A DNA stretch of 27,540 bases from a virus (taxonomy: Duplodnaviria; Heunggongvirae; Uroviricota; Caudoviricetes), in IMG/VR virus record IMGVR_UViG_2529292834_000005, positions 1 to 27,540 of that record; one strand, 5' to 3'. The position numbers were made by a program, and so were the translations under genes. Shown here piece after piece: positions 3,604 through 27,540 of the stretch. Below the pieces are notes generated by a model. The model was not told the origin of the DNA. It saw nothing but the letters and a program-made list of their open reading frames with translations, and made no database searches. Position 1 is the first letter of the stretch. Each line of letters opens with the position of its first letter.

Positions 3604-4504
3604 CTGTGCCCCCGTTGGTGACGCTCCACTCTGTACAGGACGCCGCCTGCGTCTTATCCAGCACCACATCCTCCAGCGGGGACGCCAGTTCCACACGCTG
3701 GACGCCCTCCACATGCAACGCGGCATAAATGGCGCTGCGGCGGATATCACGTCCCAGCCGCGTCTGACTGGCGATGTATTTCTGCAGGCTGGCTTTTGCT
3801 TCTGCCATCACAGGCTCAGCCTCCGGCCCCGGATAAAGGAAGATCGTCGCATCCACGCTGTACGGAATAATTTCAGCGCTGCGCACCGTCAGGCGGTCTG
3901 CCACCGGGCGAACCTTTTCACTATTAAGCGCCTGCTCAACCACTGCCAGCAGGTCAGCCCCTGCTGTACCGTCACCCTCGCGACTCAGTACGGTAAGCAC
4001 CACCTCTGCCGGTGCAGGACTGGTTGCGCTGGCATCAGCCACGCGCCCGTCGGCGCTTCTGGCGTGGAACTCATAGGCTCCCGTCGGCCCTGCAACGGAC
4101 AGCCCCTCAAATGCTGCAGGAATACGCTGGCGTAATGCTTCATCACTTTCCATCACTGCGGCGACCGGCGGCACCGCGTCATTATCGGCAGGGACTACCG
4201 TCAGGCGCTTCACGTTGCAGTTACCTGCCAGTTGTTCAAGGTCATTCCCCATGGAATAGGCCACCATGACCGCCTGCGCAGCCTCATTAATTCGCTGACG
4301 CAGCAGAATTTCGCGGTAAGTATTTTCCTGCAGCAGTTTGGTGACAGGTTCTGACTCCAGCGCTAACGTACGCATAACGGCCTCCTGTCCATCAGCCGGA
4401 TGGAGGGCCACAAAGGCGGCCTTGCGTTCTGCCAGCAATGCCTCAAAGTCCGGCACATCCACAATCTGCGGCGGCGGTAGTTGGGAAAGATCAATGACTG
4501 CCAT
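3596..4504 (-). CDS. J: Baseplate assembly protein (P2 gpJ-like)
   Basis: Start placed at ATG 4504 (MAVIDLSQLPPPQIVDVPDFEALLAERKA...), about 302 aa, matching P2 gpJ length and N-terminus as recalled. Confidence 0.85.
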   Translation of the reverse strand: MAVIDLSQLPPPQIVDVPDFEALLAERKAAFVALHPADGQEAVMRTLALESEPVTKLLQENTYREILLRQRINEAAQAVMVAYSMGNDLEQLAGNCNVKRLTVVPADNDAVPPVAAVMESDEALRQRIPAAFEGLSVAGPTGAYEFHARSADGRVADASATSPAPAEVVLTVLSREGDGTAGADLLAVVEQALNSEKVRPVADRLTVRSAEIIPYSVDATIFLYPGPEAEPVMAEAKASLQKYIASQTRLGRDIRRSAIYAALHVEGVQRVELASPLEDVVLDKTQAASCTEWSVTNGGTDE

Positions 4505-15103: not shown

Positions 15104-15135
15104 AAAAAATGCCTGCTACCGCAGGCACTTTGTTT
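15104..15135. terminator. Bidirectional rho-independent terminator between convergent Q and the 97-aa gene
   Basis: Seen: 7-bp stem tgcctgc / gcaggca with loop tacc, A6 on one side and a T-rich run on the other. Confidence 0.7.
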
Positions 15136-15427
15136 ACTCTTTAACAAGTGTAGCCCACACAGAGTCTTCAACCTCTTCAACAACAATATTGATGTTGCAA
15201 ATAACATGGTCTTCACTCTCACGAGTATATCTGAATAGCCTTGTTTTTACTTTCCCACCAAACGACTCACGGCCTTCCTTATTGGTAATGTCGACATAAT
15301 CCCCCACATTCGGAAGCATCAGAAGCGTATTGTCTTCAGAAGAACATCCTACAATATCTCCATCGTCAAGAGGTCGCATGTCCCCTTTACACAGGTATTG
15401 AAAGTCATAGCTGTAGGTAGTTTTCAT
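15134..15427 (-). CDS. Hypothetical 97-aa cargo protein between cos and Q
   Basis: ORF only; acidic, no recognisable motif; no counterpart in the P2 map at this position. Confidence 0.55.
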   Translation of the reverse strand: MKTTYSYDFQYLCKGDMRPLDDGDIVGCSSEDNTLLMLPNVGDYVDITNKEGRESFGGKVKTRLFRYTRESEDHVICNINIVVEEVEDSVWATLVKE

Positions 15428-15599
15428 TATTTATCCTTTGAAGGTAACAGTGCTTACATATGTTGGTTCAGTGGCTTAACATGGAGTTAAGGCTCTGAAA
15501 TGAGCATCATTTGAATGTAACAATATATTGCAACATGGACTCGAAAACTTCAAATCAATCTTCCCGACAGAGAGGTGTATTACTTTTACTACCTGTTAC

Positions 15600-15630
15600 G
15601 CGCGCTCGTATCCCCGCCACGCCTGCCCGC
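15600..15630. other. Putative cos site (cohesive-end region)
   Basis: Minus-strand reading GGCGTGGCGGGGA matches the start of the P2/186 19-nt cohesive end as I recall it (P2 GGCGAGGCGGGGAAAGCAC); lies between Q and the A-side genes, as in P2. Confidence 0.5.
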
Positions 15631-15740
15631 TTTTTGTAGCGATTTTCATGCAGGTGCATGACATAAGCAAAAGCCCACCAGAACTGGCGGGCCTCAGCAA
15701 AAACGATCCTCAAACGATCATGCATATTCATGCGGCATAG

Positions 15741-16523
15741 TCATGCAGTGACTTTGGTCTGGTCAGGCGTAGAAAAATCTTCGAAAGATTTATAAGTTTC
15801 AGTATCAAATATTGAAATACTCTCAACCTGATCCATTGGGATTACATGCCTAAAATGATTTAAGTTCAGTGGAGTTGAGTCTGCTGTAATATTTTTGCTA
15901 AGGTAAAGTTCATAGTAACGATGCTGCTCATGGTATCTGAGCGTATCTTTATCACGATAACCACTAATGTATGGTATGAGAGCCAGATGCTGAGTTTCCT
16001 GATGCTCCATCCGAGGAGCAGCTACGTAACCAATGTAAACTTTTCTGGATTTTAGCGTAACAAAGATGAGCTTACCTTCATCTATAGCCTGAACTAACAG
16101 TGACTCAATTCCATCTTGAGCTGCCATCTCGCGATATGCAGATTGACGAATCTCTTCGTTTTCTATTGCTCTTCGCGCATTGTTACCTTGGTCATAAGCA
16201 ATAAACACCGCAAGCAGCATAGACAACACAAAGAACAATGGGTAAGACATTATCTTTACGTCTGTGAGCCATGAATAAAAGTCCACATGTAACTTAGGCC
16301 AAAAATAGCCAAAAACATTGATAACTGAGCTTATAACTAGCAAACTAACGAATGTAACAGCCATCAGAGTAAACCCCTGAATAGCAAACTTACAACCATG
16401 CATAGCTACATAAAAATAGGAATTCCAACCATTACTTCTTGCTTGCCTGATGCGGGACTGGTAATGATTTTCGGTGTACCAGAACCCGCAAACCAGGACG
16501 ACCATGATAACTAAGGGTCCCAT
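15741..16523 (-). CDS. Membrane protein, 260 aa, 3-4 N-terminal TM helices plus about 150-aa soluble domain; hotspot cargo
   Basis: Hydrophobic segments at about residues 3-17, 46-75 and 91-110; starts 3 bp after the 66-aa gene; occupies the slot of P2 tin/old next to cos. Confidence 0.75.
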   Translation of the reverse strand: MGPLVIMVVLVCGFWYTENHYQSRIRQARSNGWNSYFYVAMHGCKFAIQGFTLMAVTFVSLLVISSVINVFGYFWPKLHVDFYSWLTDVKIMSYPLFFVLSMLLAVFIAYDQGNNARRAIENEEIRQSAYREMAAQDGIESLLVQAIDEGKLIFVTLKSRKVYIGYVAAPRMEHQETQHLALIPYISGYRDKDTLRYHEQHRYYELYLSKNITADSTPLNLNHFRHVIPMDQVESISIFDTETYKSFEDFSTPDQTKVTA

Positions 16524-16526
16524 TCC

Positions 16527-16727
16527 TCATCCTTGTCGTTTTGCAGCCAATTCTTCCATTCTGGCACGCATTGATTCACGTACCTGCTTATTGTTCATGT
16601 TTAAGGTCGCCGCACCATTAGCATCTGTGATAATTTTACTATTATCAGACTGTTGCACATCCTGACGGATAACATCCTGCATAATCTTACCCGGTGCAGA
16701 GAGAACTTTGCGCAGAAGTTCAGACAT
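16527..16727 (-). CDS. Small hydrophilic protein, 66 aa, first gene of two-gene cargo cassette
   Basis: Start placed at ATG 16727 with strong RBS AAGGAGG; the ORF-track N-terminal extension is not supported by an RBS. Confidence 0.6.
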   Translation of the reverse strand: MSELLRKVLSAPGKIMQDVIRQDVQQSDNSKIITDANGAATLNMNNKQVRESMRARMEELAAKRQG

Positions 16728-16946
16728 ATTTTCCTCCTTATGCCTCAAACGCCACGGATTGTGGTGCATGGAGGCTGTCATCTTATAATTATAGGACAAC
16801 AAAAATACGAAACTATTCGAAGAGTGCTACGTATTAACCTATTTACATATCACCCTGCAACCAATTTATCCATAACTAACGCCTCGCACGGCTCGTTGCT
16901 CAACCTTGCGAACGGTAAAAACCAGTTTTATCGTCCGCAACGTTCC

Positions 16947-17180
16947 CTAATGTAACCAGCTGTCGTCCTCCCAGACCTGCTGCATGATTTCCATCACTCG
17001 CTTTTTGTCTTCATCCAGTTTTAACCCGCTCAGTTCAACACCATTGGCGCTGCCCTTACGGATACGAATTGCTGTTTTGGGATACAGAGGGCGCAAATTA
17101 CGGTAAAGCTCGGATTCAAGGGCTTCCAGTGTGACCTGGCTAATCTTCAGCTCTTTATCGATCATTATTTCAATGCGCAT
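16947..17180 (-). CDS. DinI-family protein
   Basis: 77 aa, MRIEIMIDKELK...VMEIMQQVWEDDSWLH resembles E. coli DinI from memory (MRIEVTIAK...ETWESADDW). Confidence 0.75.
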   Translation of the reverse strand: MRIEIMIDKELKISQVTLEALESELYRNLRPLYPKTAIRIRKGSANGVELSGLKLDEDKKRVMEIMQQVWEDDSWLH

Positions 17181-17191
17181 ACAGATTCCCT

Positions 17192-17380
17192 TTAACTGGT
17201 AACGTCCATTGACCGGCTGTATTCATGGCTGCGAATTTTCGCCATCAACTCGTCAGTCAGTTCAGACACCCACTGGATAGCCAGCCGCTTTTCTTCATCG
17301 CTGCACTCACTAGCCGCTACAAGCTTGATAAAAAAATCAATACGCTGGAGCTTCAATGACTCCAAAAGATAGTCCTGCAT
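17192..17380 (-). CDS. Small SOS-regulated protein, 62 aa, possible Tum-like antirepressor
   Basis: Start at ATG 17380 with RBS AGGAGG; LexA box about 50 bp upstream; in phage 186 the LexA-controlled tum gene sits at this end of the genome and is DinI-related (recollection). Confidence 0.5.
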   Translation of the reverse strand: MQDYLLESLKLQRIDFFIKLVAASECSDEEKRLAIQWVSELTDELMAKIRSHEYSRSMDVTS

Positions 17381-17427
17381 CTTCCCTCCTATCATTACAC
17401 GGATACACAACAACTGTATATATACCC

Positions 17428-17447
17428 ACTGTTTATATGAACAGTAT
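17428..17447. promoter_or_regulatory. LexA (SOS) box
   Basis: Seen: aCTGTttatatgaACAGta, a perfect CTGT-N8-ACAG with AT-rich spacer, in the promoter region of the 62-aa/DinI-like genes. Confidence 0.65.
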
Positions 17448-17538
17448 AATAGGAACAAAAAAATGTAAAACTGTTTTTTGTCAGTTAATTGGATACACTG
17501 ACACCAGTCAATAAAGCACGAAATGTTAAACAGCAGTC

Positions 17539-19989
17539 TTAGTACCACTGACGCCATTTGTCATCTTCCTGCAGCCGCTGGTTACGGTAAAAAATACGTA
17601 AACCGGCCCCGGATGGAATGCTGCCACCACGCAGAAGCAAATCAATCTCCGATGCACTACCTTCAAACCCTCTGGCAGTCAATTCCGCTTCAAGCTGCAG
17701 ACGCTGCTGCTCCGAAATACTCTGTTTGTAGGCTTTTTTCCGCTTCGGTTTTACCAGTCTCAACCTGGCTGTCAGCTCCCGGCGTTCCTTCTGGCCCATA
17801 TTGTATAGGTAATCCTGCAGTTCCTGCTCATTCATGGTTTTAATATCGGGCAGATCTCCCCCTGTATGGTTCAATTTTTCAACAGGGGGACAGTTATTGC
17901 CACGAGTCCAAGGGGCGCAAGCGCCCTGGTCGGCTGCCGCCTCCTGAATATCAACGGCCTTACGAACCTTTTTCCACTTCATCGCATGCGTGCAAATCTT
18001 GCCCTCTGCAATCGGGGACCAGATGCCATAGATACGGATACCGTGATCGCCGTAGGCGCTCGGTTCGTCGTTAAGCTCATAAGCAGTGCGGACAAGGTGA
18101 TGTTTGCGGGGAACCAGTACACCGCCCTGCTTCATGATGTAGGTGGCAAAGCAACCCGCATCTGCAGCCGCCAGTACCGCATCCAGACGTGGATTATCCA
18201 GTACAGGCGCACCCGCTTTGCGTTCGCCCTGTACTCTCGCCGCCTGACCAGCCAGCAAGCGCAGCTCGCGGTATGCCTGGCGCCCCGGAATACCAAAGAA
18301 ACGAAATTGCTGGACACGGTGCAGTGACGCCCAGGTGCTGACATGCTCGGCGCTGTCACGCAGTGATCTGCCGGTTTCTTTACTGATTTCTTTAGCCAGC
18401 CCGCGCCCGTCGATGTTCTTACTGATGTATTTGGCGATGTAGCTGGTCGGCGTGCCCTTGCGCGGGTTGATTAGCTCAGACTTGAAGCGCGGCCCGGTAT
18501 TGGTACCCAGCTCCTCGCGGTCTTCACGGATGGCAAACTTACGCAGCAGTGCGGTGATGGAACGGCGGTCTTTTTTGCGCATGAAGCACAGAAGATGCCA
18601 GTGCACGGTGCCGTCATGGTGCGGCTCTGCAACGCGAACGCCATACCAGCGCAGCCCGGCCTTGTGCATGGCCTTGCGGAAAGCGGCGAACGTATCAACC
18701 AGGTAGTCACTGCTCTGCCGGACAGTGGCACTGGTCCACTTCGGATTAGGTCTGCCGTTGTTGAGGGTTGCGTGGAAGCGTGACGGGCAGGTGATGGTAT
18801 AAAACACCGCGCAGTCTCCGCGCATTTCCGCGATCAGTTCCAGCCCTTTAACACAGGCCATCATTTCATTACGGCGGTGCGCCGGGTTGCTGTTGCTGGC
18901 GTTCACCACATCTTCCATGTCCAGCGTGTCACCGTCTTCGTTGACCAGCTCATGCGAGCGGAAGAACTCCAGCGATTTGCGGCGCTGCTCGCGTTTGTGG
19001 ATCACAGCTTCATAGCTGACATACGGGGACGCTTTCTTGTTGACCAGGCAGACGGCGCGCAGTTGCTCCTCCCGCCACTCACAGCGCATCTGCCACAATT
19101 TGCGATACCACCAGTCCGCACACAGCATGCGCGCCAGCGATGGTGGGATCAGTTCATAAGGCACTAGCTTGCGGCGACGCTTTTTGCGGCGCAACTTCTC
19201 AAAGGCAGGCGGGATGACCTCAAGGCGCATGGCTTCTGCAGCAACCCTTTCCCATGACTGGCGGATTTCTTCTGGTTTAACATCGTCACTGACAAACAGA
19301 TCACCGCAGGCCGCATCAAGACACATGCTCATATGTGCCGCAACCAGCGTGGACAGACGTTTGACCTGCTCCTGATTCATTTCAGGCAGTACCAGCAGCC
19401 CCTCCAGGCCGTCCTGGCTCGCCATGAACCGGAAAGACGCAGACACCTGGCTGTCACGCACGCGTTCCAGCCGCTCAAGACACGGTCTGATTGTTTCGCG
19501 CAGATAGCGGGAATAAGCTTTAGCCCTGCCCAGGCTATGGAAGTATTTAATTCGCTCCAGCAGAGGCTTGCTGATATGGGCAGGCATGGCGCTTACATCG
19601 GCAATAATCACCAAATCGGGATTAACGCGCTGCTGTTCGCGGGCCATTTTGGCATGGCTAATCAGCCGATCCTGCTCCATTTCACGCTGGACAGGATCGC
19701 GGGATTCATTGAAGAAATAACGTTCCCAAACCTTATCACTCAGCGCCTCACGGCGCAGATGCTCCCGCTCGTTATCCGCAGCGTACAGAGTGATGAGGTT
19801 TGAAAGCGCAGACTCCGGCGCAACTTCCGCCGGGTCCAGATACGGGTTAACCGCTTGTTTGGGCAAATTCCACGAATAAGGCCCGGCAACATTCTCAACG
19901 CTACCGGGATTTTCAGTTACAAACGTGGCTGCAAGACGGCCTGTACTGATTTCCGTCACTCGCAGACTCCCGCATAAACACTGCTGCAC
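17539..19989 (-). CDS. A: Replication initiation endonuclease (P2 gpA-like rolling-circle initiator)
   Basis: 816-aa ORF; contains [14 protein letters not shown] (active-site tyrosine motif type); true start may be internal, since the ORF overlaps the upstream gene by 34 bp. Confidence 0.85.
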
Positions 19990-20966
19990 ACCGCCTTATC
20001 ATTCATGCCTGCAAGCAGGTCGAACTGCACACCGCCACGAGTGGTTAAGGCCCAGTCGCGATAAGACTCAATGCCATAAGCATCAACGGTAATGACTTCA
20101 ATACGTTTTTCAGCACGGCGCGGGTCATGCGTGGACGGGAAGAATGTTGAATTGCCACGCCGTGAACATTCCGCAACCATCCTCTCCCATTCAGCCACAC
20201 GGCGGATTTCGTCAGGCCAGCGCTGGAAAATTTCTGCAAGCTCGGACTTGCGGGCGTGAATACATGGCATACACCCGACACGGCTGCAGCCCTGCAGATA
20301 AAGTGGGTTAGGCTTAATGCCATGGCGTCTGGCAAGGGCGAACACATCTTCATGCAGCCAGTTGAGGATCGGACGATAAACATGAAGGCCCGGTGTATCG
20401 TCAGCGTCTTCCTCCCACTCAGGCAGCAAAGCACGCTCCGGTGATTCCTGCCCACGGACGCCCTGCCAACTGATTACCTCGTCGTACTCTTCCAGAGCCG
20501 GGACAATCACCTGCGTCCGCACTGGCTCATGTTTCAGCTCAAACGTGCAGAAACGGACCTTGGTTGAAGGGAAGCGACCTTTCCACATGCACAAATCAAG
20601 AAATGGGTTGCCAGTTGGTTTAAGGATTTCCAGTGCCCGATGAATGCGTTCTGCTGCTTCATCCGGCGACATACCGCATTCCTGAACCAGAGAAACGGGC
20701 CACTTCTCAGCAATGAATTTACGTTTCCCTTCTATCCGGCGCGTGAAATCGGCTTTAACGCGGATAATCTTCCCCAGCTTTGACTCCAGATAATCCAGAT
20801 ATTCCATCGTCTGGGGGTGTTCATGGCCCGTATCAGCAAAGACAGAAATATGCGGAACATCGTTTTCAATAGCTCTTAGCCATTGTGCAAGACTATCTTT
20901 GCCACCTGAAATACTGATGGTGTTGATAGTGCTGGCAGCGAAGCAGCGCGGATCGATGGCATTCAT
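19956..20966 (-). CDS. PAPS-reductase-like PP-loop protein
   Basis: 336 aa with PP-loop motif ISGGKDS near the N-terminus and cysteine cluster [10 protein letters not shown]; 4-bp overlap with dam. Confidence 0.8.
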
Positions 20967-21811
20967 ACGCGTACCTCAACGGTACGGTCTGGACCTCTGG
21001 CATAATCAACACCAACCCAGCCAACTGATTTTGTGGCGATAATTTCTGCTGCAGATTTACTTTCACCGGCTGCTACGCCCATGCTGCGTTTTGCAGTGAT
21101 ACGATGGCGGGTAAAGCTACGATAAAGCGAACGGGTCAGGGATGTGTCGCTGTTGGACACGATAACTGGATGACCTTCTAATGACCGGCGCTCAAGAATA
21201 GACGCCAGATGATACTGATCGTCATCTGTAAAACCGGCAGTGTGATAACCACTAAATGTGCCATCGTATGGTGGATCACAATAAACAACATCCCCCCCCC
21301 TCAGCAGTGCTAGTGTTTCGTCATAGCTGGCACAGATAAACGTTGCGCGTTGAGTCTTTTCAGCAAAAGCGCGTATTTCATTTTCAGGAAAATACGGATT
21401 TTTATAATTACCATAAGGAACATTAAAATGACCGCTCAAGTTGTAGCGGCACAGCCCACGATAACCATGGCGATTGAGATATAGGAAATATACTGCTTTC
21501 ATGAAATCAGTAATTTCAGAGGAATGATTAAACTCATGCCTAATGTTGTAATAAGCAACTTCTCTATTCGCTATCGCAAAAATACTTTTCGTGCGTGATA
21601 TGAAAGCCTCACAATCAAGGGCGATTTTTTTATAGAGATTGATAAGATCTGGATTAATATCCGCGACAAGATAATGAGGATAGTCTGTCGCCATCATCAC
21701 AGCACAGGAACCCGCGAAAGGTTCAACCAGCCGCGAGCCAGCAGGAAGGTGCTTAATCAATTCCGGCATGATAGCGGTTTTATTTCCCGCCCATTTCAGG
21801 ATAGTGGTCAT
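20963..21811 (-). CDS. dam: DNA adenine methyltransferase (Dam family)
   Basis: 282 aa; motif I region EPFAGSCAV and motif IV DPPY ([10 protein letters not shown]); contains a G9 homopolymer on the coding strand. Confidence 0.9.
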
Positions 21812-22104
21812 ATAGCTCCCCCTGAAATGACATAGGAGAGAGCCTCAAGCGGCGTTAATGAGCGAATAGAAAGAATTACCCATTGCCCTTCCACTGCCAC
21901 AACTTCATTAATCGGCAAAGTGTGGGTAATAACAGCGGCCCATTCCCGACCAGTATATGAACCGTGTTTCCATTCGCAGAGAGAAAGGACATCACCTACT
22001 TTGTAGCCGCGATCATCTTTGCGAAGCTCTGCCTTTTTGCTGCCAGCGACTACGGCATTAAAATACTTAGGTGCAATTTTTATCTGATGGATGCGCATAG
22101 TCAT
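21808..22104 (-). CDS. ASCH-like (DUF3850-type) small protein
   Basis: 98 aa; [34 protein letters not shown] resembles the DUF3850/ASCH pattern as recalled; overlaps dam start by 4 bp. Confidence 0.6.
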
Positions 22105-22328
22105 ACTGCACCTCCGTTATAGTGTTTGCCTTTCAGCTCTGCGATTTCCTGACAAGTGACACAGCACTGCACACCCGGAATAGCACGGCGGCGTGCTGGC
22201 GGGATCGGTGCATCACAATCAATGCAAAGCACACGGGAAACGCCCGGCGTTCTATTGCGGGCGGTGTGGATGTGGCGCTGACGTTCTTCTTCAACGCGCT
22301 GCTGTACAAGGTCCATTGAATCAGCCAT
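22101..22328 (-). CDS. TraR/DksA-family C4 zinc-finger protein
   Basis: 75 aa; [26 protein letters not shown] gives a C-x2-C...C-x2-CQ pattern typical of this family. Confidence 0.7.
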
Positions 22329-22561
22329 CAGTGGATCTCCTGCGCTTCGTTCTGAATGTTTTCAGCCGCAATACGCAGCAGCTCTGCCGCTTCAACGTGA
22401 TTAAGCTGGCGTGACGAGATATGGCAAGCCAGGCTATCAAGACGGGCTGCCATTGCCGCAGCACGTGCACGGCGTTCTTCCATGCGCGCATCAGTCAGCA
22501 TCTGGTTAAGGCCAGCATCATCTGGTCCTGTTTTGGTGATTCGGGTTTCAATATTTCGCAT
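22328..22561 (-). CDS. Hypothetical early-operon protein
   Basis: 77-aa ORF, chained by 1-nt stop/start overlap to the next gene; no motif recognised. Confidence 0.5.
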   Translation of the reverse strand: MRNIETRITKTGPDDAGLNQMLTDARMEERRARAAAMAARLDSLACHISSRQLNHVEAAELLRIAAENIQNEAQEIH

Positions 22562-22628: not shown

Positions 22629-22970
22629 TTAATTCGGCATGGCTAGCCGATTTGGAAATAAACTCACCACTGTACGGAAATGGTTCATTGCTTTAATCAG
22701 CTCCCGCTTTTCGTCAGTCGTCAGCTCACTAACATTGACGCTATGACGTTCCGCCGGAATCTTTGCCATAAAGAATATTGCGGCTAGTGCGCGTTTATTC
22801 TGCTCATGGTTAATATCCCGTTGGTCCCGCATATCGCTAATAAAGCGCTCCAGTTCTGAATCAATATTTAAGCCAAACACTTTCGCCCTTAATTCCGCGA
22901 TGTGGTTTAACCCATTAAGGCGGAGGCCAGCGCTTAGCGGAACAGTCGCAGCATCGCCTTCAATAGCCAT
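22629..22970 (-). CDS. Hypothetical early-operon protein
   Basis: 113-aa ORF in the early operon; start uncertain, since it overlaps the preceding small ORF by 37 bp. Confidence 0.5.
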   Translation of the reverse strand: MAIEGDAATVPLSAGLRLNGLNHIAELRAKVFGLNIDSELERFISDMRDQRDINHEQNKRALAAIFFMAKIPAERHSVNVSELTTDEKRELIKAMNHFRTVVSLFPNRLAMPN

Positions 22971-23141: not shown

Positions 23142-23651
23142 TCAGATCAGACCGAACGAAGCGCCGAGGCCCGTCACGGTATCTACTGCGCTTGCCATCG
23201 CCGGATTCGCCTGCAAACGCGCATGTAATGAAACTGCGGTGAGTGCCATCAGGCGCGTGACAGAGTTGATGCTGTTGATAACATCGCGGCGGCCCGCACT
23301 GGTTTTTACATCACCGGATACTGCGCCTGCAGCTACTCGCCCAATTTCCGCAGTTGCACTCATGACGTAATGCGGCAGGTTCTCTTTTGCCACTTCATTC
23401 AATGGCACACACGGCAGGCAATGGATTTGAGCCAGAAAACCGTCAACCAGCGTTGAGTCTTCTGTGATATCAGTCAGCAGCCAGATCTCCGGCGGCGTAA
23501 GTTGATGCGGTTGCTCCGGGGTCAGCTTATTGCGCAGCGTCTGGACATTCATTCCTGCGCGTTCTGCCAGCTTCGCCATGTTGTGACGCAGCGCGAAAGC
23601 CCGGCAGGCTTCGTCAAAGTGTGGATGTTTGGAAATCTTATAATCAAACAT
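23142..23651 (-). CDS. cII: CII-like lysogeny establishment regulator (phage 186 CII type)
   Basis: 169 aa; MFDYKISKHPHFDEACRAFALRHNMAKLAERAGMNVQTLRNKL closely resembles 186 CII as I recall it. Confidence 0.8.
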   Translation of the reverse strand: MFDYKISKHPHFDEACRAFALRHNMAKLAERAGMNVQTLRNKLTPEQPHQLTPPEIWLLTDITEDSTLVDGFLAQIHCLPCVPLNEVAKENLPHYVMSATAEIGRVAAGAVSGDVKTSAGRRDVINSINSVTRLMALTAVSLHARLQANPAMASAVDTVTGLGASFGLI

Positions 23652-23683: not shown

Positions 23684-23926
23684 TTACTGACCAACAATGA
23701 CGCGAAAGTTGGAATGACCGAGGGATTCACGAACCTGGTCGGTTTTGTACATCAGGTAACGCAGGCTTACGCGACCTTTGTTTTTTTCTTTTTTGACCAT
23801 GTACTTAGCAAGATGACCATGGTGAATTTTCTGGTAAACAGAGCCACGGGAGATACCTTCCCATTCAGCGAACTCTGCAGGCGTAGCCATCTCTTTTGGT
23901 ACACGAATTGAAATATCAGTGCTCAT
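23684..23926 (-). CDS. apl: Apl/Cox-like excisionase and lytic-switch regulator
   Basis: 80 aa, first gene of the minus-strand early operon, divergent from cI; HTH-like segment ATPAEFAEWEGISRGSVYQKI. Confidence 0.7.
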   Translation of the reverse strand: MSTDISIRVPKEMATPAEFAEWEGISRGSVYQKIHHGHLAKYMVKKEKNKGRVSLRYLMYKTDQVRESLGHSNFRVIVGQ

Positions 23927-24042
23927 AGTGCAGTATCTCTTAGTTTTGTTTCGATTTATCTCGTTTTATAGGGTTGGGGTTTGTTTTTCAAACCTTGAAT
24001 GAATACTAAGATCACATTTTATATACGTCAAGAGTTTTGCTT
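23927..24042. promoter_or_regulatory. Lysis/lysogeny switch region (pR/pL-type promoters and operators)
   Basis: 116-bp AT-rich region between divergent apl and cI; individual operators and promoters not resolved by eye. Confidence 0.5.
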
Positions 24043-24675
24043 ATGAGATCCATCAAGGTAGGTAATGACAGCGGAGGGCGTGAAGCTATCAATAGGCTGA
24101 TTAAGGCTTATAACTTCAACTCTCGACAGCAGTTGTGTGACCATCTTTCCGTTTCAAAAAGCACTATGGCAAACAGATACTTAAGAGACAGTTTCCCAGC
24201 TGAATGGGTTATACAGTGCGCCCTTGAAACTGGGGTTTCACTGCTTTGGTTAACGACTGGGCAAGGGGATAAAAATGATAATAACGCGCAGGAAAATAGT
24301 TTTGGTTTTGTGAACCAGACCTACATCAAACCGTTATCCGAGGTTGTAGCGCCTGAAATTGATAAGGCCACATTAGATGGTGGCGCTTTAGTGGACCAAG
24401 GCAAAGTGATATTGGATAACAGTCTAATCCCCCACAACATGACAAACCCGTGGCTCATCCATACAGATGATGGCTCTTACCTCATTGACCGTAGCGGTAC
24501 TCCACCAGTAAATGGCGTATGGCTCGTTGATATTGATGGAATAAAAACGATAGCTAAACTTGCGCGCATCCCCGGCAATCGCTTAATTGTCCAGCAGGGT
24601 GAGTCATCTTTTGAGTGCAGCCTTGATGATATCGAGGTAGTAGGCCGTGCTATAAAAGTAATTAAGAGTCTGTGA
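24043..24675 (+). CDS. cI: CI immunity repressor (phage 186 CI type)
   Basis: Start at ATG 24043 (MRSIKVG...); ...CALETGVSLLWLTTGQG and C-terminal GVWLVDIDG...LARIPGNRL resemble 186 CI as recalled; no obvious RecA-autocleavage motif noted. Confidence 0.8.
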   Translation: MRSIKVGNDSGGREAINRLIKAYNFNSRQQLCDHLSVSKSTMANRYLRDSFPAEWVIQCALETGVSLLWLTTGQGDKNDNNAQENSFGFVNQTYIKPLSEVVAPEIDKATLDGGALVDQGKVILDNSLIPHNMTNPWLIHTDDGSYLIDRSGTPPVNGVWLVDIDGIKTIAKLARIPGNRLIVQQGESSFECSLDDIEVVGRAIKVIKSL

Positions 24676-24676
24676 T

Positions 24677-25696
24677 ATGACGATCAGAAAACAGCCGAAC
24701 GGAAAATGGTTGTGTGAGTGCTACCCGAACGGGCGCGACGGCAAACGCGTGCGCAAGCAATTTGCGACGAAAGGCGAGGCCATAGCATTCGAAAACTTCA
24801 CCATGGATGAAGTAAACAAAAAGCCATGGCTTGGTGAGAAGGAAGATCGGCGGCGCTTATCAGAAGTGATTGAGCAGTGGCATTCACTCTACGGACAGAC
24901 ACTTGCTGATCCCAAACGCCTGATGGCGAAACTTAACATTATTTGTAATGGCCTTGGAGACCCCATCGCCTCAGAGTTAACTGCTGGCGATTTTACAAAA
25001 TACCGGGAAGCTCGGCTAAAAGGTGAAGTAAAAAATGAAAATGGCGCTCTTATGTCGCCAGTTAAGCCCCGTACTGTAAACCTTGAACAACGCAACCTAT
25101 CATCAGTTTTTGGCACACTGAAGAAGCTAGGCCACTGGTCAGCACCAAACCCACTCGCCGGGCTACCAACATTCAAGATCGCAGAGGGTGAGTTGGCGTT
25201 CCTAGCACCGGAAGAAATTAAGCGCCTGCTGGATGCCTGCGCTGATTCCCAAAGCCCCAGCCTGCTGATGATTGCAAAAATATGCCTTGCCACCGGCGCG
25301 CGATGGAGTGAAGCCGAAAACCTGCAGGGCCACCAGTTATCAAAGTACCGGATCACCTATACCAAGACCAAAGGCAAAAAAAACCGCACAGTACCGATAT
25401 CCCAGAATCTGTATGACGAACTCCCTAAGAACAGAGGCAAGTTATTCACACCTTGTAGAAAATCCTTTGAACGAGCAGTAAAACGGGCTGGTATCGAGCT
25501 GCCTGATGGACAATGCACCCACGTGCTTCGTCATACGTTCGCCAGTTATTTTATGATGAATGGCGGAAACATACTTGTATTAAGAGATATTCTGGGCCAT
25601 GCCGATATAAAAATGACGATGATTTACGCTCACTTTGCCCCTAATCATCTTGAAGATGCGGTGACAAAAAACCCACTTACTATGTTGGAAATATAA
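24677..25696 (+). CDS. int: Tyrosine integrase (P2/186 type)
   Basis: 339 aa; C-terminal catalytic region HVLRHTFAS...LGHADIKMTMIYAHF (R...HxxR...Y pattern); follows cI in the same operon. Confidence 0.9.
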   Translation: MTIRKQPNGKWLCECYPNGRDGKRVRKQFATKGEAIAFENFTMDEVNKKPWLGEKEDRRRLSEVIEQWHSLYGQTLADPKRLMAKLNIICNGLGDPIASELTAGDFTKYREARLKGEVKNENGALMSPVKPRTVNLEQRNLSSVFGTLKKLGHWSAPNPLAGLPTFKIAEGELAFLAPEEIKRLLDACADSQSPSLLMIAKICLATGARWSEAENLQGHQLSKYRITYTKTKGKKNRTVPISQNLYDELPKNRGKLFTPCRKSFERAVKRAGIELPDGQCTHVLRHTFASYFMMNGGNILVLRDILGHADIKMTMIYAHFAPNHLEDAVTKNPLTMLEI

Positions 25697-25698
25697 AA

Positions 25699-26730
25699 AT
25701 GGAAAAAAGCATTTTTACTCTTATTTATTTTTCCCTTTTATTTTTGTGTCTATTTTCTTTTATTAAGTATCGACTTTACGAACTTAATCATAGAAGCTTA
25801 TTTCAACAACCACTATTCTGGGCTGCAATAGCGATACCCTTATTCACATGTCTTTATTTAGGCTCATTTGTCTGGATAAACAAATTAAACTCATTTAGCC
25901 TTACAAGCCACGGCTATCAGCGATTTCTCGACATATCAAAATTACCACTGCTAATTCTTGCATCTGCAGTACCTTTAGTCTCAATCGTTAATAACCTACA
26001 CCGGACCAAACAAACTGAAAAACAAATCTCAGAAGCAGAGAGAAAAAACAGAGTAGACTTATATTACAATCATATGAAGTTCCATCTTGATTTATATAAA
26101 AAGATTGAGTCAAAGAAAATCAGCAGTTACTATCCCATTGAAGAAACTCATAAAGAAGCTGTATATCAACATTTCATCAAACACCCGCAAGAACTTTACA
26201 GAAAAGCCTATCCCTTATCTTCACCAGATGACTCTCAATACTTAAACATCAGTGATAGTTTTATCATAGAACTGCATAAATGTTGGGTTGAAATCAATGG
26301 CAGACTGAAGCAACTATCAGAGAGCGATGTACAGCTAAATCCTGACCAAGAACTTTGTGCTTCAAAGATGAGAATTTTCTTTGGAATAATGAATATTTAT
26401 GAAAAGACTTGCAAGCATCTTTGTTTAGGGGGGTATCACACCCAAAAATCATTCATTTTGAATGATAAATTTGATAAGTATCAAATCTATTCGCCATTTT
26501 ATGACTTTGGAACTATGTACCAGTCTCTGCAGGCTCTGGAGGAAATTACATACGCCTTCCTAGATACATGTAGAAACGAAGAGGTAAATTTATATTTCCC
26601 GTTAGAAGACAAAATCCTCATCTATGGCGAAGGAATTCTTCAAGATTGGTTCAGGTATTCTCAGTTCTTGATTTCTACAGCTTATCAACCCTCCAGGATT
26701 GCGCGTCTACCAATGCCAGTACAAGTATAA
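25699..26730 (+). CDS. AT-rich membrane-anchored cargo protein, 343 aa (3 N-terminal TM helices plus about 245-aa soluble domain)
   Basis: Starts 2 bp after the int stop; hydrophobic segments at about 5-22, 39-59 and 80-97; markedly AT-rich; lies between int and the att core. Confidence 0.75.
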   Translation: MEKSIFTLIYFSLLFLCLFSFIKYRLYELNHRSLFQQPLFWAAIAIPLFTCLYLGSFVWINKLNSFSLTSHGYQRFLDISKLPLLILASAVPLVSIVNNLHRTKQTEKQISEAERKNRVDLYYNHMKFHLDLYKKIESKKISSYYPIEETHKEAVYQHFIKHPQELYRKAYPLSSPDDSQYLNISDSFIIELHKCWVEINGRLKQLSESDVQLNPDQELCASKMRIFFGIMNIYEKTCKHLCLGGYHTQKSFILNDKFDKYQIYSPFYDFGTMYQSLQALEEITYAFLDTCRNEEVNLYFPLEDKILIYGEGILQDWFRYSQFLISTAYQPSRIARLPMPVQV

Positions 26731-26847
26731 TTTATGGCGGCATTATGGCGGCAGAGCACTAAAAAAGCATAAAACGGACAAACACCAAATAACATTAACA
26801 TATTGTTTTTAAACATAACTTACTGTTTTTAATACAGTTAAAATGGT

Positions 26848-26892
26848 ATGTAGGAATTTCGGACGCGGGTTCAACTCCCGCCAGCTCCACCA
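26848..26892 (+). other. ssrA: Prophage att core: 3'-terminal 45 nt of tmRNA gene ssrA (partial copy ending in CCA)
   Basis: Seen: ATGTAGGAATTTCGGACGCGGGTTCAACTCCCGCCAGCTCCACCA, matching the E. coli ssrA 3' end as I recall it; upstream sequence is phage coding DNA, so only the 3' fragment is present. Confidence 0.75.
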
Positions 26893-26908
26893 AATATTGA
26901 TGTACTGA

Positions 26909-27540
<632 letters not shown>

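Follow-up and report, generated by a model that had tools for sequence, protein, structure and literature searches.

Do three genes that overlap one another directly upstream of a phage replication initiator work as one DNA-modification machine, or do they share only a place in the genome? The question is raised by IMG/VR virus record IMGVR_UViG_2529292834_000005, of which we analysed a stretch of 27,540 nucleotides (hereafter the window). The window covers the early and structural region of a P2-type prophage, and it is close to Fels-2, SopE-phi, SEN8 and Yersinia phage MLG42 (about 90% nucleotide identity across about 70% of the window). On its minus strand a DUF3850/ASCH gene (21808-22104, 98 amino acids (aa)), a Dam-family methyltransferase gene (20963-21811, 282 aa) and a gene for a PP-loop protein of the PAPS_reduct family (19956-20966, 336 aa) lead into the replication initiator gene A (17539-19959, minus strand; Phage_GPA, 436 bits in Pfam). 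The first-pass annotation, made from the sequence alone, had taken the three genes for a coupled module of DNA modification or anti-restriction. It had the positions of the open reading frames (ORFs) right, as it had the place directly upstream of gene A, and searches with hidden Markov models gave the same domain calls: ASCH/DUF3850-type (PF12961), Dam (PF02086/TIGR00571) and PAPS-reductase-like with an SGGKDS motif (PF01507; PAPS, 3'-phosphoadenosine 5'-phosphosulfate). The explanation that we favour, which in our judgement stands an even chance of being correct, is instead a mosaic cassette for DNA modification and counter-defence, placed within the early lytic operon of a P2-type prophage that resembles Fels-2 and 186.

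Mosaic distribution of the three genes

The coupling of the three genes is where the first-pass annotation failed, for they assort independently. From IMG/VR we took 80 loci that encode a PP-loop protein with at least 80% identity to that of the window, and located the relatives of the window genes in each. In most of these loci the PP-loop gene came immediately ahead of gene A; Dam adjoined it in about 35, and DUF3850 was present in only a few: locus L006 has the same trio, L014 lacks Dam, and in L074 DUF3850 lies downstream of A. Gene A itself was absent from about 12 of the loci. Among 5426 complete E. coli genomes, the Dam type of the window was present in 1024 and the PP-loop gene in 38, with the two side by side in 24. 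The prophage of E. coli 2012C-4502 carries an identical trio, Yersinia phage MLG42 combines DUF3850 with Dam and lacks the PP-loop gene, and in Yersinia phage P37 the PP-loop gene stands alone before A. An obligate three-gene operon is contradicted by these distribution data and was rejected.

Seen from the side of DUF3850, the picture is one of pairs. Seven clusters of homologues, 57-80% identical, came from Salmonella, Klebsiella, E. coli, Cronobacter and Mixta prophages (loci L165-L168 and L171-L178, with DUF3850 at 4001-4330 or 2501-2830). Six of the seven have the order DUF3850, overlapping D12 Dam, gene A, without a PP-loop gene, and the seventh lacks both Dam and the PP-loop gene. DUF3850 is thus linked more tightly to Dam than to the PP-loop gene.

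The PP-loop protein remains 83-85% identical even where the gene A proteins share only 30-36% identity, and since it is conserved where A has diverged, it appears to be encoded by a mobile, self-contained gene; its distribution shows that it has moved horizontally, and recently, between phage types. The slot between the TraR-type gene and A is a combinatorial cassette site of Fels-2/186-like prophages, and its two recurring, independently mobile units are the DUF3850-Dam pair and the PP-loop gene. A PP-loop gene at the same level of identity (83-85%) was also seen in contigs of 40-50 kb without gene A (L070, L053, L057, L059, L061, L062, L064, L071-L073, L079 and L080). The copy in L070 (5998-7005) sits among small early genes in a lambdoid nin-type region upstream of terminase.

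Family placement and motifs of the PP-loop protein

What, then, is the PP-loop protein? Its best tblastn match among isolated phages is Orf84 of coliphage 186 (CP84, NP_052288), with 83.2% identity over residues 4-336. Full-length homology and the position 5' of A make it a member of the Orf84 family, so that the gene is already known as orf84 of phage 186, where its function is unexplained: the RefSeq annotation describes Orf84 as non-essential. The phage 186 gene, too, lies directly 5' of A with an overlapping stop and start, in the same early operon after CII, DUF2732 and TraR; the genes that precede it differ, however, being an exonuclease-like CP82 and a DUF5405 protein, CP83, and not DUF3850 and Dam.

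Membership in the PAPS_reduct superfamily is clear (PF01507, 119.9 bits, above the Pfam gathering score). The SGGKDS motif at residues 20-25 is a canonical SGGxDS PP-loop, and cysteines are found at residues 8, 97, 126, 140, 227, 232, 235, 267, 327 and 335. In an alignment of 55 relatives of 36-57% identity, SGGKDS is kept in 51-55 of the 55 and C140, C232, C235, C327 and C335 in 54-55; the last two form a pair in the C-terminal tail, and the family-wide consensus of the C-terminus is CSSxYGLCE. A search of 1.84 billion cluster representatives gave 2293 relatives. An AlphaFold model built with the alignment of the protein is confident (pLDDT 94.6). Compared with the reductases, the protein has about 150 extra residues without a solved match. 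About 60 aa form a helical insertion (about residues 72-130), and the C-terminal region that lacks a solved match is about 100 aa long.

None of the curated models of known enzymes claims this protein. The scores are 61.4 bits against a cut-off of 154 for CysH NF002537, 35.9 against 165.1 for CysH TIGR00434, 33.2 against 254.2 for the PAPS reductase TIGR02057, 46.6 against 235.3 for the adenosine 5'-phosphosulfate (APS) reductase TIGR02055 and 18.2 against 290.4 for the DndC equivalog TIGR03183; with the CysH-type models, only the C-terminal half matches. The loops of the assimilatory APS/PAPS reductases (CysH; PDB 2goy, 1sur and 6vpu) are degenerate (SSSFG, SFSGAED), whereas that of the window protein is canonical. 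In a profile search, RVGCMPC of the window protein aligned with SIGCEPCT of the Pseudomonas APS reductase 2goy, whose CxxC cysteines we take to be two of its [4Fe-4S] ligands. Aligned by eye, C140 corresponds to the second cysteine of the CC pair of APS reductase, and F139 occupies the first position; the window protein therefore has one cysteine where the enzyme has two, and three of the four members of the CC...CxxC ligand set are present. CysH ends in the catalytic tail ECGLH. The window protein has a cysteine tail as well, but of a different motif.

Among defence models, the best match was SspD (PADLOC PDLC02782; E 5.7e-23, 80 bits, in two stretches), a model without a curated cut-off, of which positions 70-203 of 277 were matched by the main stretch at protein residues 125-269. 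The BrxP model was matched in part (9.4e-13, positions 212-334 of 779), and the PADLOC DndC models at 1.8e-6 over about 80 residues. With DndC, SspD and BrxP the protein has in common the PAPS_reduct superfamily, the canonical SGGKDS loop, a three-cysteine motif of Fe-S type and an extra cysteine pair; the properties of DndC-type enzymes are described in PMC10853773, and BrxP, from BREX type 4, in PMC12839542. It differs from them in being encoded by a phage and not in a defence island, and in having no fusion to DUF4007. BrxP itself combines a PAPS reductase with DUF4007, by fusion or linkage, and has BrxC, PglZ and BrxL as neighbours (PMC12839542); with no BREX gene nearby, no such fusion and a partial match only, we rejected a BREX component. 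DndA, DndD and DndE, the partners of DndC, are not beside the PP-loop gene, whose neighbours in the window are TraR, DUF3850, Dam and A, and phage genes in related loci; nor does the window encode SspA, SspB or SspC.

The canonical PP-loop, the three-cysteine site and the separate cysteine pair fit the description of DndC in PMC10853773, and on this ground the protein would act like an adenylating Fe-S sulfur transferase, outside the DndC, SspD, BrxP and CysH families, with C140, C232 and C235 as putative Fe-S ligands. In other words, it is of DndC/SspD-like design but belongs to a separate phage clade.

Beside this clade there is a short one (about 250 aa) of phage PAPS-reductase-like proteins, which is abundant in marine metagenomes (relatives P0336-P0455). 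Its member in Vibrio phage 1.047.O (L162, 2980-3777) shares only 27% identity with the window protein, over residues 17-236 of the latter, and its gene lies between a DUF3987 gene and an annotated CHC2 zinc-finger gene.

Methyltransferase neighbours and the link to defence

If the trio is not one unit, is the proximity of a methyltransferase to the PP-loop gene an accident of this prophage group? In order to look beyond it, 36 divergent loci from other phage types were taken, with PP-loop proteins mostly 45-59% identical to that of the window, and the flanking ORFs were scanned with Pfam; the methyltransferase counts rest on these scans, as a regular-expression screen for methyltransferase motifs under-detects C5 enzymes. 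At positions ±1 and ±2, 14 of 138 ORFs encode DNA methyltransferases (10 C5, 2 D12 and 2 N6_N4), the commonest family class, and two more encode ParB. At positions ±4 and ±5 of the same loci (120 ORFs), no methyltransferase family was among the 25 listed of 41 matched. The Fisher exact test gave p = 1e-4, or 8e-3 if two methyltransferases are hidden in the unlisted families. One further relative of the PP-loop protein has a weak methyltransferase-like domain at its N-terminus.

Burkholderia phage phiE125 offers an arrangement of the same kind in its genes gp56-gp57-gp58. In the early region of this temperate phage, the methyltransferase gene gp56 overlaps by 4 bases the PP-loop gene gp57, whose product is 44% identical to that of the window. 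Its methyltransferase, however, is a Cfr9I-like N4/N6 enzyme of the beta class, a ParB-like gene comes next, and phiE125 is a siphovirus whose replication genes are lambda-like. Since the neighbouring methylases belong to unrelated classes and differ in target base, a chemistry built on N6-methyladenine (m6A) is unlikely. The association would fit either a shared theme, that of DNA-modification islets, or a methylase that acts as DNA-targeting partner.

An experimental phenotype exists for a single member of the broad PAPS-domain group, from the Vibrio crassostreae podovirus p0018. Piel et al. 2022 (preprint 10.1101/2021.05.05.442762) moved its PAPS-domain/Dam fusion into a sister Vibrio phage, which then escaped from Dnd; a neighbouring gene of unknown function was transferred along with it, and the mechanism was not determined. 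As in the window, a PAPS_reduct domain is here physically linked to an adenine methyltransferase; for the Vibrio protein, the outcome is escape from DndFGH restriction. The p0018 protein, on the other hand, is one fused chain of 479 aa with a Dam domain of the phage-type Dam family, whereas the window has separate overlapping genes, methyltransferase then PP-loop, and a Dam of the D12 class. None of the 60 phage records that tblastn matched contained the p0018 protein, and no fusion was found among 120 proteins (about 250 aa, all unfused) obtained by a search with a short-type homologue from a Vibrio phage. A 2026 paper in Nucleic Acids Research places PAPS reductases in anti-CRISPR-associated, Aca-regulated anti-defence operons, while other papers class phage PAPS reductases as sulfur-metabolism genes, a view against which the data argue for the Orf84-type clade. 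The first-pass idea of DNA modification or anti-restriction thus gains from the adjacency of methyltransferases and from the Vibrio anti-Dnd fusion, but it does not survive as the work of one three-gene machine.

The DUF3850-Dam pair

The product of 20963-21811 matches PF02086 (MethyltransfD12) with 243.9 bits over model positions 1-253 of 253 and exceeds the cut-off of the Dam subfamily in NCBIfam (TIGR00571, 300.9 bits against 114.85). With 277.8 bits against 441 it stays below that of the host Dam equivalog NF008152; PADLOC lists it as an orphan methyltransferase (1.3e-104). With E. coli Dam (2g1p, 243 bits) it shares the subfamily and a full-length alignment, in which its DPPY motif and the N-terminal KWAGNK motif (AdoMet-binding region) both align; the difference is that it is encoded in a prophage early operon and falls below the equivalog cut-off. 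Because of this full-length similarity, the window Dam is predicted to methylate GATC. The window holds 89 GATC sites against 90 expected, neither avoided nor enriched, a frequency that says nothing for or against such methylation. In Yersinia phage vB_YpM_MLG42 (PP599993.1; L002, 3963-4805), tblastn found a Dam gene 79% identical to that of the window, which the GenBank record leaves unannotated, with a gap between gene A and the DUF3850 gene.

Its partner matches DUF3850 (PF12961) with 81.9 bits against a cut-off of 22.9 over model positions 1-77 of 77, and the ASCH model of Pfam weakly (22 against 21.2 bits). It is basic (pI 9.2), it matches phrog_986 'RNA-binding protein' (1.2e-38) and PDB 3iuw, a structural-genomics entry (E 1.6e-8), and its stretch GSKKAELR fits GxKxxExR, the signature of the ASCH superfamily. 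This small PUA-like protein probably binds nucleic acid, and gene linkage alone suggests that it serves Dam, whether by reading the methyl mark or by modulating the enzyme. In the published literature we found no functional study of DUF3850; a 2025 preprint reports ParB-DUF3850 fusions in prophages. In Yersinia phage P37 (L003, 1-1716), the region downstream of A contains a gene for an ASCH-domain protein of 151 aa, a small ORF and the gene of a C5 cytosine methyltransferase, a further case of an ASCH-type protein close to a DNA methylase, here one of a different class.

Gene junctions and translation into gene A

Read in the sequence, stop/start overlaps of 4 bases (ATGA) lie at 22101-22104, 21808-21811 and 20963-20966, the last two as the first-pass annotation had noted, and the stop of the PP-loop gene overlaps the start of gene A in a GTGA at 19956-19959. 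The overlaps chain the TraR/DksA gene through DUF3850, Dam and the PP-loop gene into gene A. The ORF lister had placed the start of A at GTG 19989, a choice that we rejected; because the (A/G)TGA junction before A is conserved in phage 186, Yersinia phage P37 and the E. coli 2012C-4502 prophage, the true start is probably GTG 19959. In prophages without the PP-loop gene, Dam overlaps A directly.

What could such a chain be for? According to the RefSeq record of phage 186, A seems to be translated only if orf84 is translated to its end, and the terminator tM1, just inside A, is the 'expected terminator for lytic transcripts in absence of translation of A gene'. In the window, a 12-bp hairpin at 19882-19908 (minus strand) lies about 50-75 nt into gene A, is terminator-like and has an RNA fold of -18.4 kcal/mol (z -2.5). 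Its position is analogous to that of tM1, although its sequence cannot be aligned with that of 186; the E. coli 2012C prophage has the same hairpin sequence. From the orf84/A coupling in 186 and this tM1-like hairpin, the 4-base overlaps are most readily understood as a chain that couples translation throughout the slot to that of A, and not necessarily as the sign of a shared pathway. Such chaining was shown in 186 for orf84 to A, and in the window the conserved junction points to it.

Weighing the explanations

The mosaic cassette that we favour is made up of the two units. Dam would methylate GATC adenines in the replicating phage DNA, and DUF3850 would bind nucleic acid and serve Dam as reader or modulator. 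The Orf84-type enzyme, as the second unit, would not be a CysH of sulfate assimilation; it would adenylate a nucleic-acid substrate and deliver to it sulfur from a host cysteine desulfurase or, alternatively, engage the host phosphorothioation machinery. Either way, the phage would evade modification-dependent restriction of the Dnd/Ssp type, and all genes of the cassette would be expressed early and chained in translation, by the 4-base overlaps, into A. The identities of the genes, their mosaic distribution, the adjacency of methyltransferases and the conservation of the motifs are shown by the data, and Fe-S binding, the substrate and the anti-defence role of the PP-loop enzyme are predicted. 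It is also conceivable, if rather improbable, that the Orf84-type enzyme is an autonomous phage enzyme of DNA sulfur modification (phosphorothioate or thio-base) with the adjacent or fused methyltransferase as its DNA-targeting partner, which would be a compact and previously undescribed two-protein thiolation system.

Several facts weigh against the mosaic cassette as a modification and counter-defence device. The closest solved folds of the PP-loop protein are sulfonucleotide reductases, not DNA enzymes, and no DndC or SspD structure was among the matches of the PDB searches. Neither DndD/DndE nor SspB/SspC, as DNA-recognition partner, is encoded nearby, and the choice of site by a lone PP-loop enzyme is unexplained without one. 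More than half of the close homologues in the 80 loci have no neighbouring methyltransferase, and any partnership of the two is therefore optional. The p0018 fusion and the window protein are known to be related at the level of the Pfam family only, phage 186 grows without orf84 on laboratory hosts (RefSeq note), and we found no published functional study of the Orf84-type clade. The linkage of DUF3850 with Dam, for its part, was sampled within related enterobacterial prophages and could reflect common descent.

How do other explanations fare by comparison? The three proteins might form one obligate pathway, with a new hypermodified base or backbone as product: Dam would mark or target GATC, the site would be adenylated and thiolated by the PP-loop enzyme, and the product would be read or edited by DUF3850. 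The overlaps that chain the trio, its recurrence in E. coli 2012C-4502 and in locus L006, the existence of methyltransferase-PAPS fusions and the enrichment of methyltransferases beside the PP-loop gene would all agree with this; yet each gene is widespread without the others, the neighbouring methyltransferases fall into unrelated classes (C5, N4/N6, D12) with different target bases, and the overlaps are a property of the slot, as Dam takes over the overlap with A where the PP-loop gene is absent. We hold such a pathway to be quite unlikely. Much the same low probability attaches to a plainly metabolic role, that of an auxiliary CysH which reduces PAPS/APS to sulfite and so yields more cysteine during infection. 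The Pfam family, the APS/PAPS reductases as best solved folds, a C-terminal cysteine tail that recalls ECGLH and the metabolic treatment of phage PAPS reductases in the literature speak for it. It is opposed by scores far below all curated cut-offs, by the canonical SGGKDS loop as against the degenerate ones of CysH and APS reductase, by the helical insertion and the C-terminal region without a solved match, and by neighbours that are replication genes and DNA methylases and not genes of sulfur metabolism.

The protein could also be a decoy, catalytic in part or not at all, that binds host DndA/IscS, DndD/E, SspB/C or the restriction module and leaves the phage DNA unmodified. Its resemblance to SspD, BrxP and DndC with no DNA-targeting partner nearby is compatible with this, and so is the fact that the anti-Dnd phenotype came from a phage PAPS-domain protein of unknown mechanism. 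On the other hand, relatives of 36-57% identity keep the ATP loop and all putative cluster and relay cysteines almost without change, as is expected of an active enzyme and unneeded for a decoy, and we regard the decoy as a rather unlikely outcome. Least probable of all, in our view, is thiolation of RNA, for example of tRNA in the manner of TtuA, TtcA or NcsA, with the DUF3850/ASCH protein as RNA-binding helper, by which translation would be guarded against anticodon nucleases or retuned: the likeness to the tRNA enzymes is weaker than that to sulfonucleotide reductases, DUF3850 seldom adjoins the PP-loop gene, and the genes enriched beside the latter are those for DNA methylases, ParB and replication.

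Early operon and flanking regions

The early operon of the window is transcribed on the minus strand in the order apl/cox-like, CII, DUF5347, DUF2732, TraR/DksA, DUF3850, Dam, PAPS_reduct and A. Its first members are the apl/cox-like gene (23684-23926), CII (23142-23651), DUF5347 (22629-22970) and DUF2732 (22328-22561), all on the minus strand. The TraR/DksA-type C4 zinc-finger gene that follows (22101-22328, minus; Pfam zf-dskA_traR 39.4 bits, TIGR02419 66.4 bits) is the counterpart of CP81 of phage 186; it forms the upstream edge of the variable slot and is the first member of the overlap chain. The plus strand carries the genes for the CI repressor (24037-24675) and the integrase (24677-25696). 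A scan of the window with Rfam gave no match.

Downstream of gene A, toward the portal gene, there is an AT-rich stretch (15134-17557, GC 0.41-0.46) with four minus-strand ORFs at 15741-16523 (260 aa), 16527-16802 (91 aa), 17192-17557 (121 aa) and 15134-15427 (97 aa), none of which scored above a Pfam gathering cut-off or matched PADLOC. Its position suggests that the stretch is cargo, possibly a defence system. The E. coli 2012C-4502 prophage (L001, 1-1695) has a reverse transcriptase/endonuclease of the retron Ec67 family downstream of gene A, at the same hotspot. At the other end of the window, the integrase gene is followed on the plus strand by an ORF of 343 aa (25699-26730, GC about 0.37-0.43) without a match in Pfam or PADLOC, and then by the start of a second integrase (Arm-DNA-bind_3, 26978-27376), which suggests the tandem integration of a second island at 25699-27376.

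Implications

Phage 'PAPS reductases' are counted as sulfur-metabolism genes in many virome studies. Should the PP-loop enzyme turn out to be counter-defensive or DNA-modifying, this common metabolic annotation would be wrong for the Orf84-type clade, and we think that a widespread phage enzyme has probably been mis-annotated. It would then represent a new tool on the side of the phage in the arms race with Dnd, Ssp and BREX-4. The tight pairing of DUF3850 with Dam also provides a new lead, modest but open to test, on the function of DUF3850. As the PP-loop gene is 83% identical to orf84 of coliphage 186, a genetically tractable phage, the question of what the Orf84-type enzyme does can be tested directly in E. 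coli.

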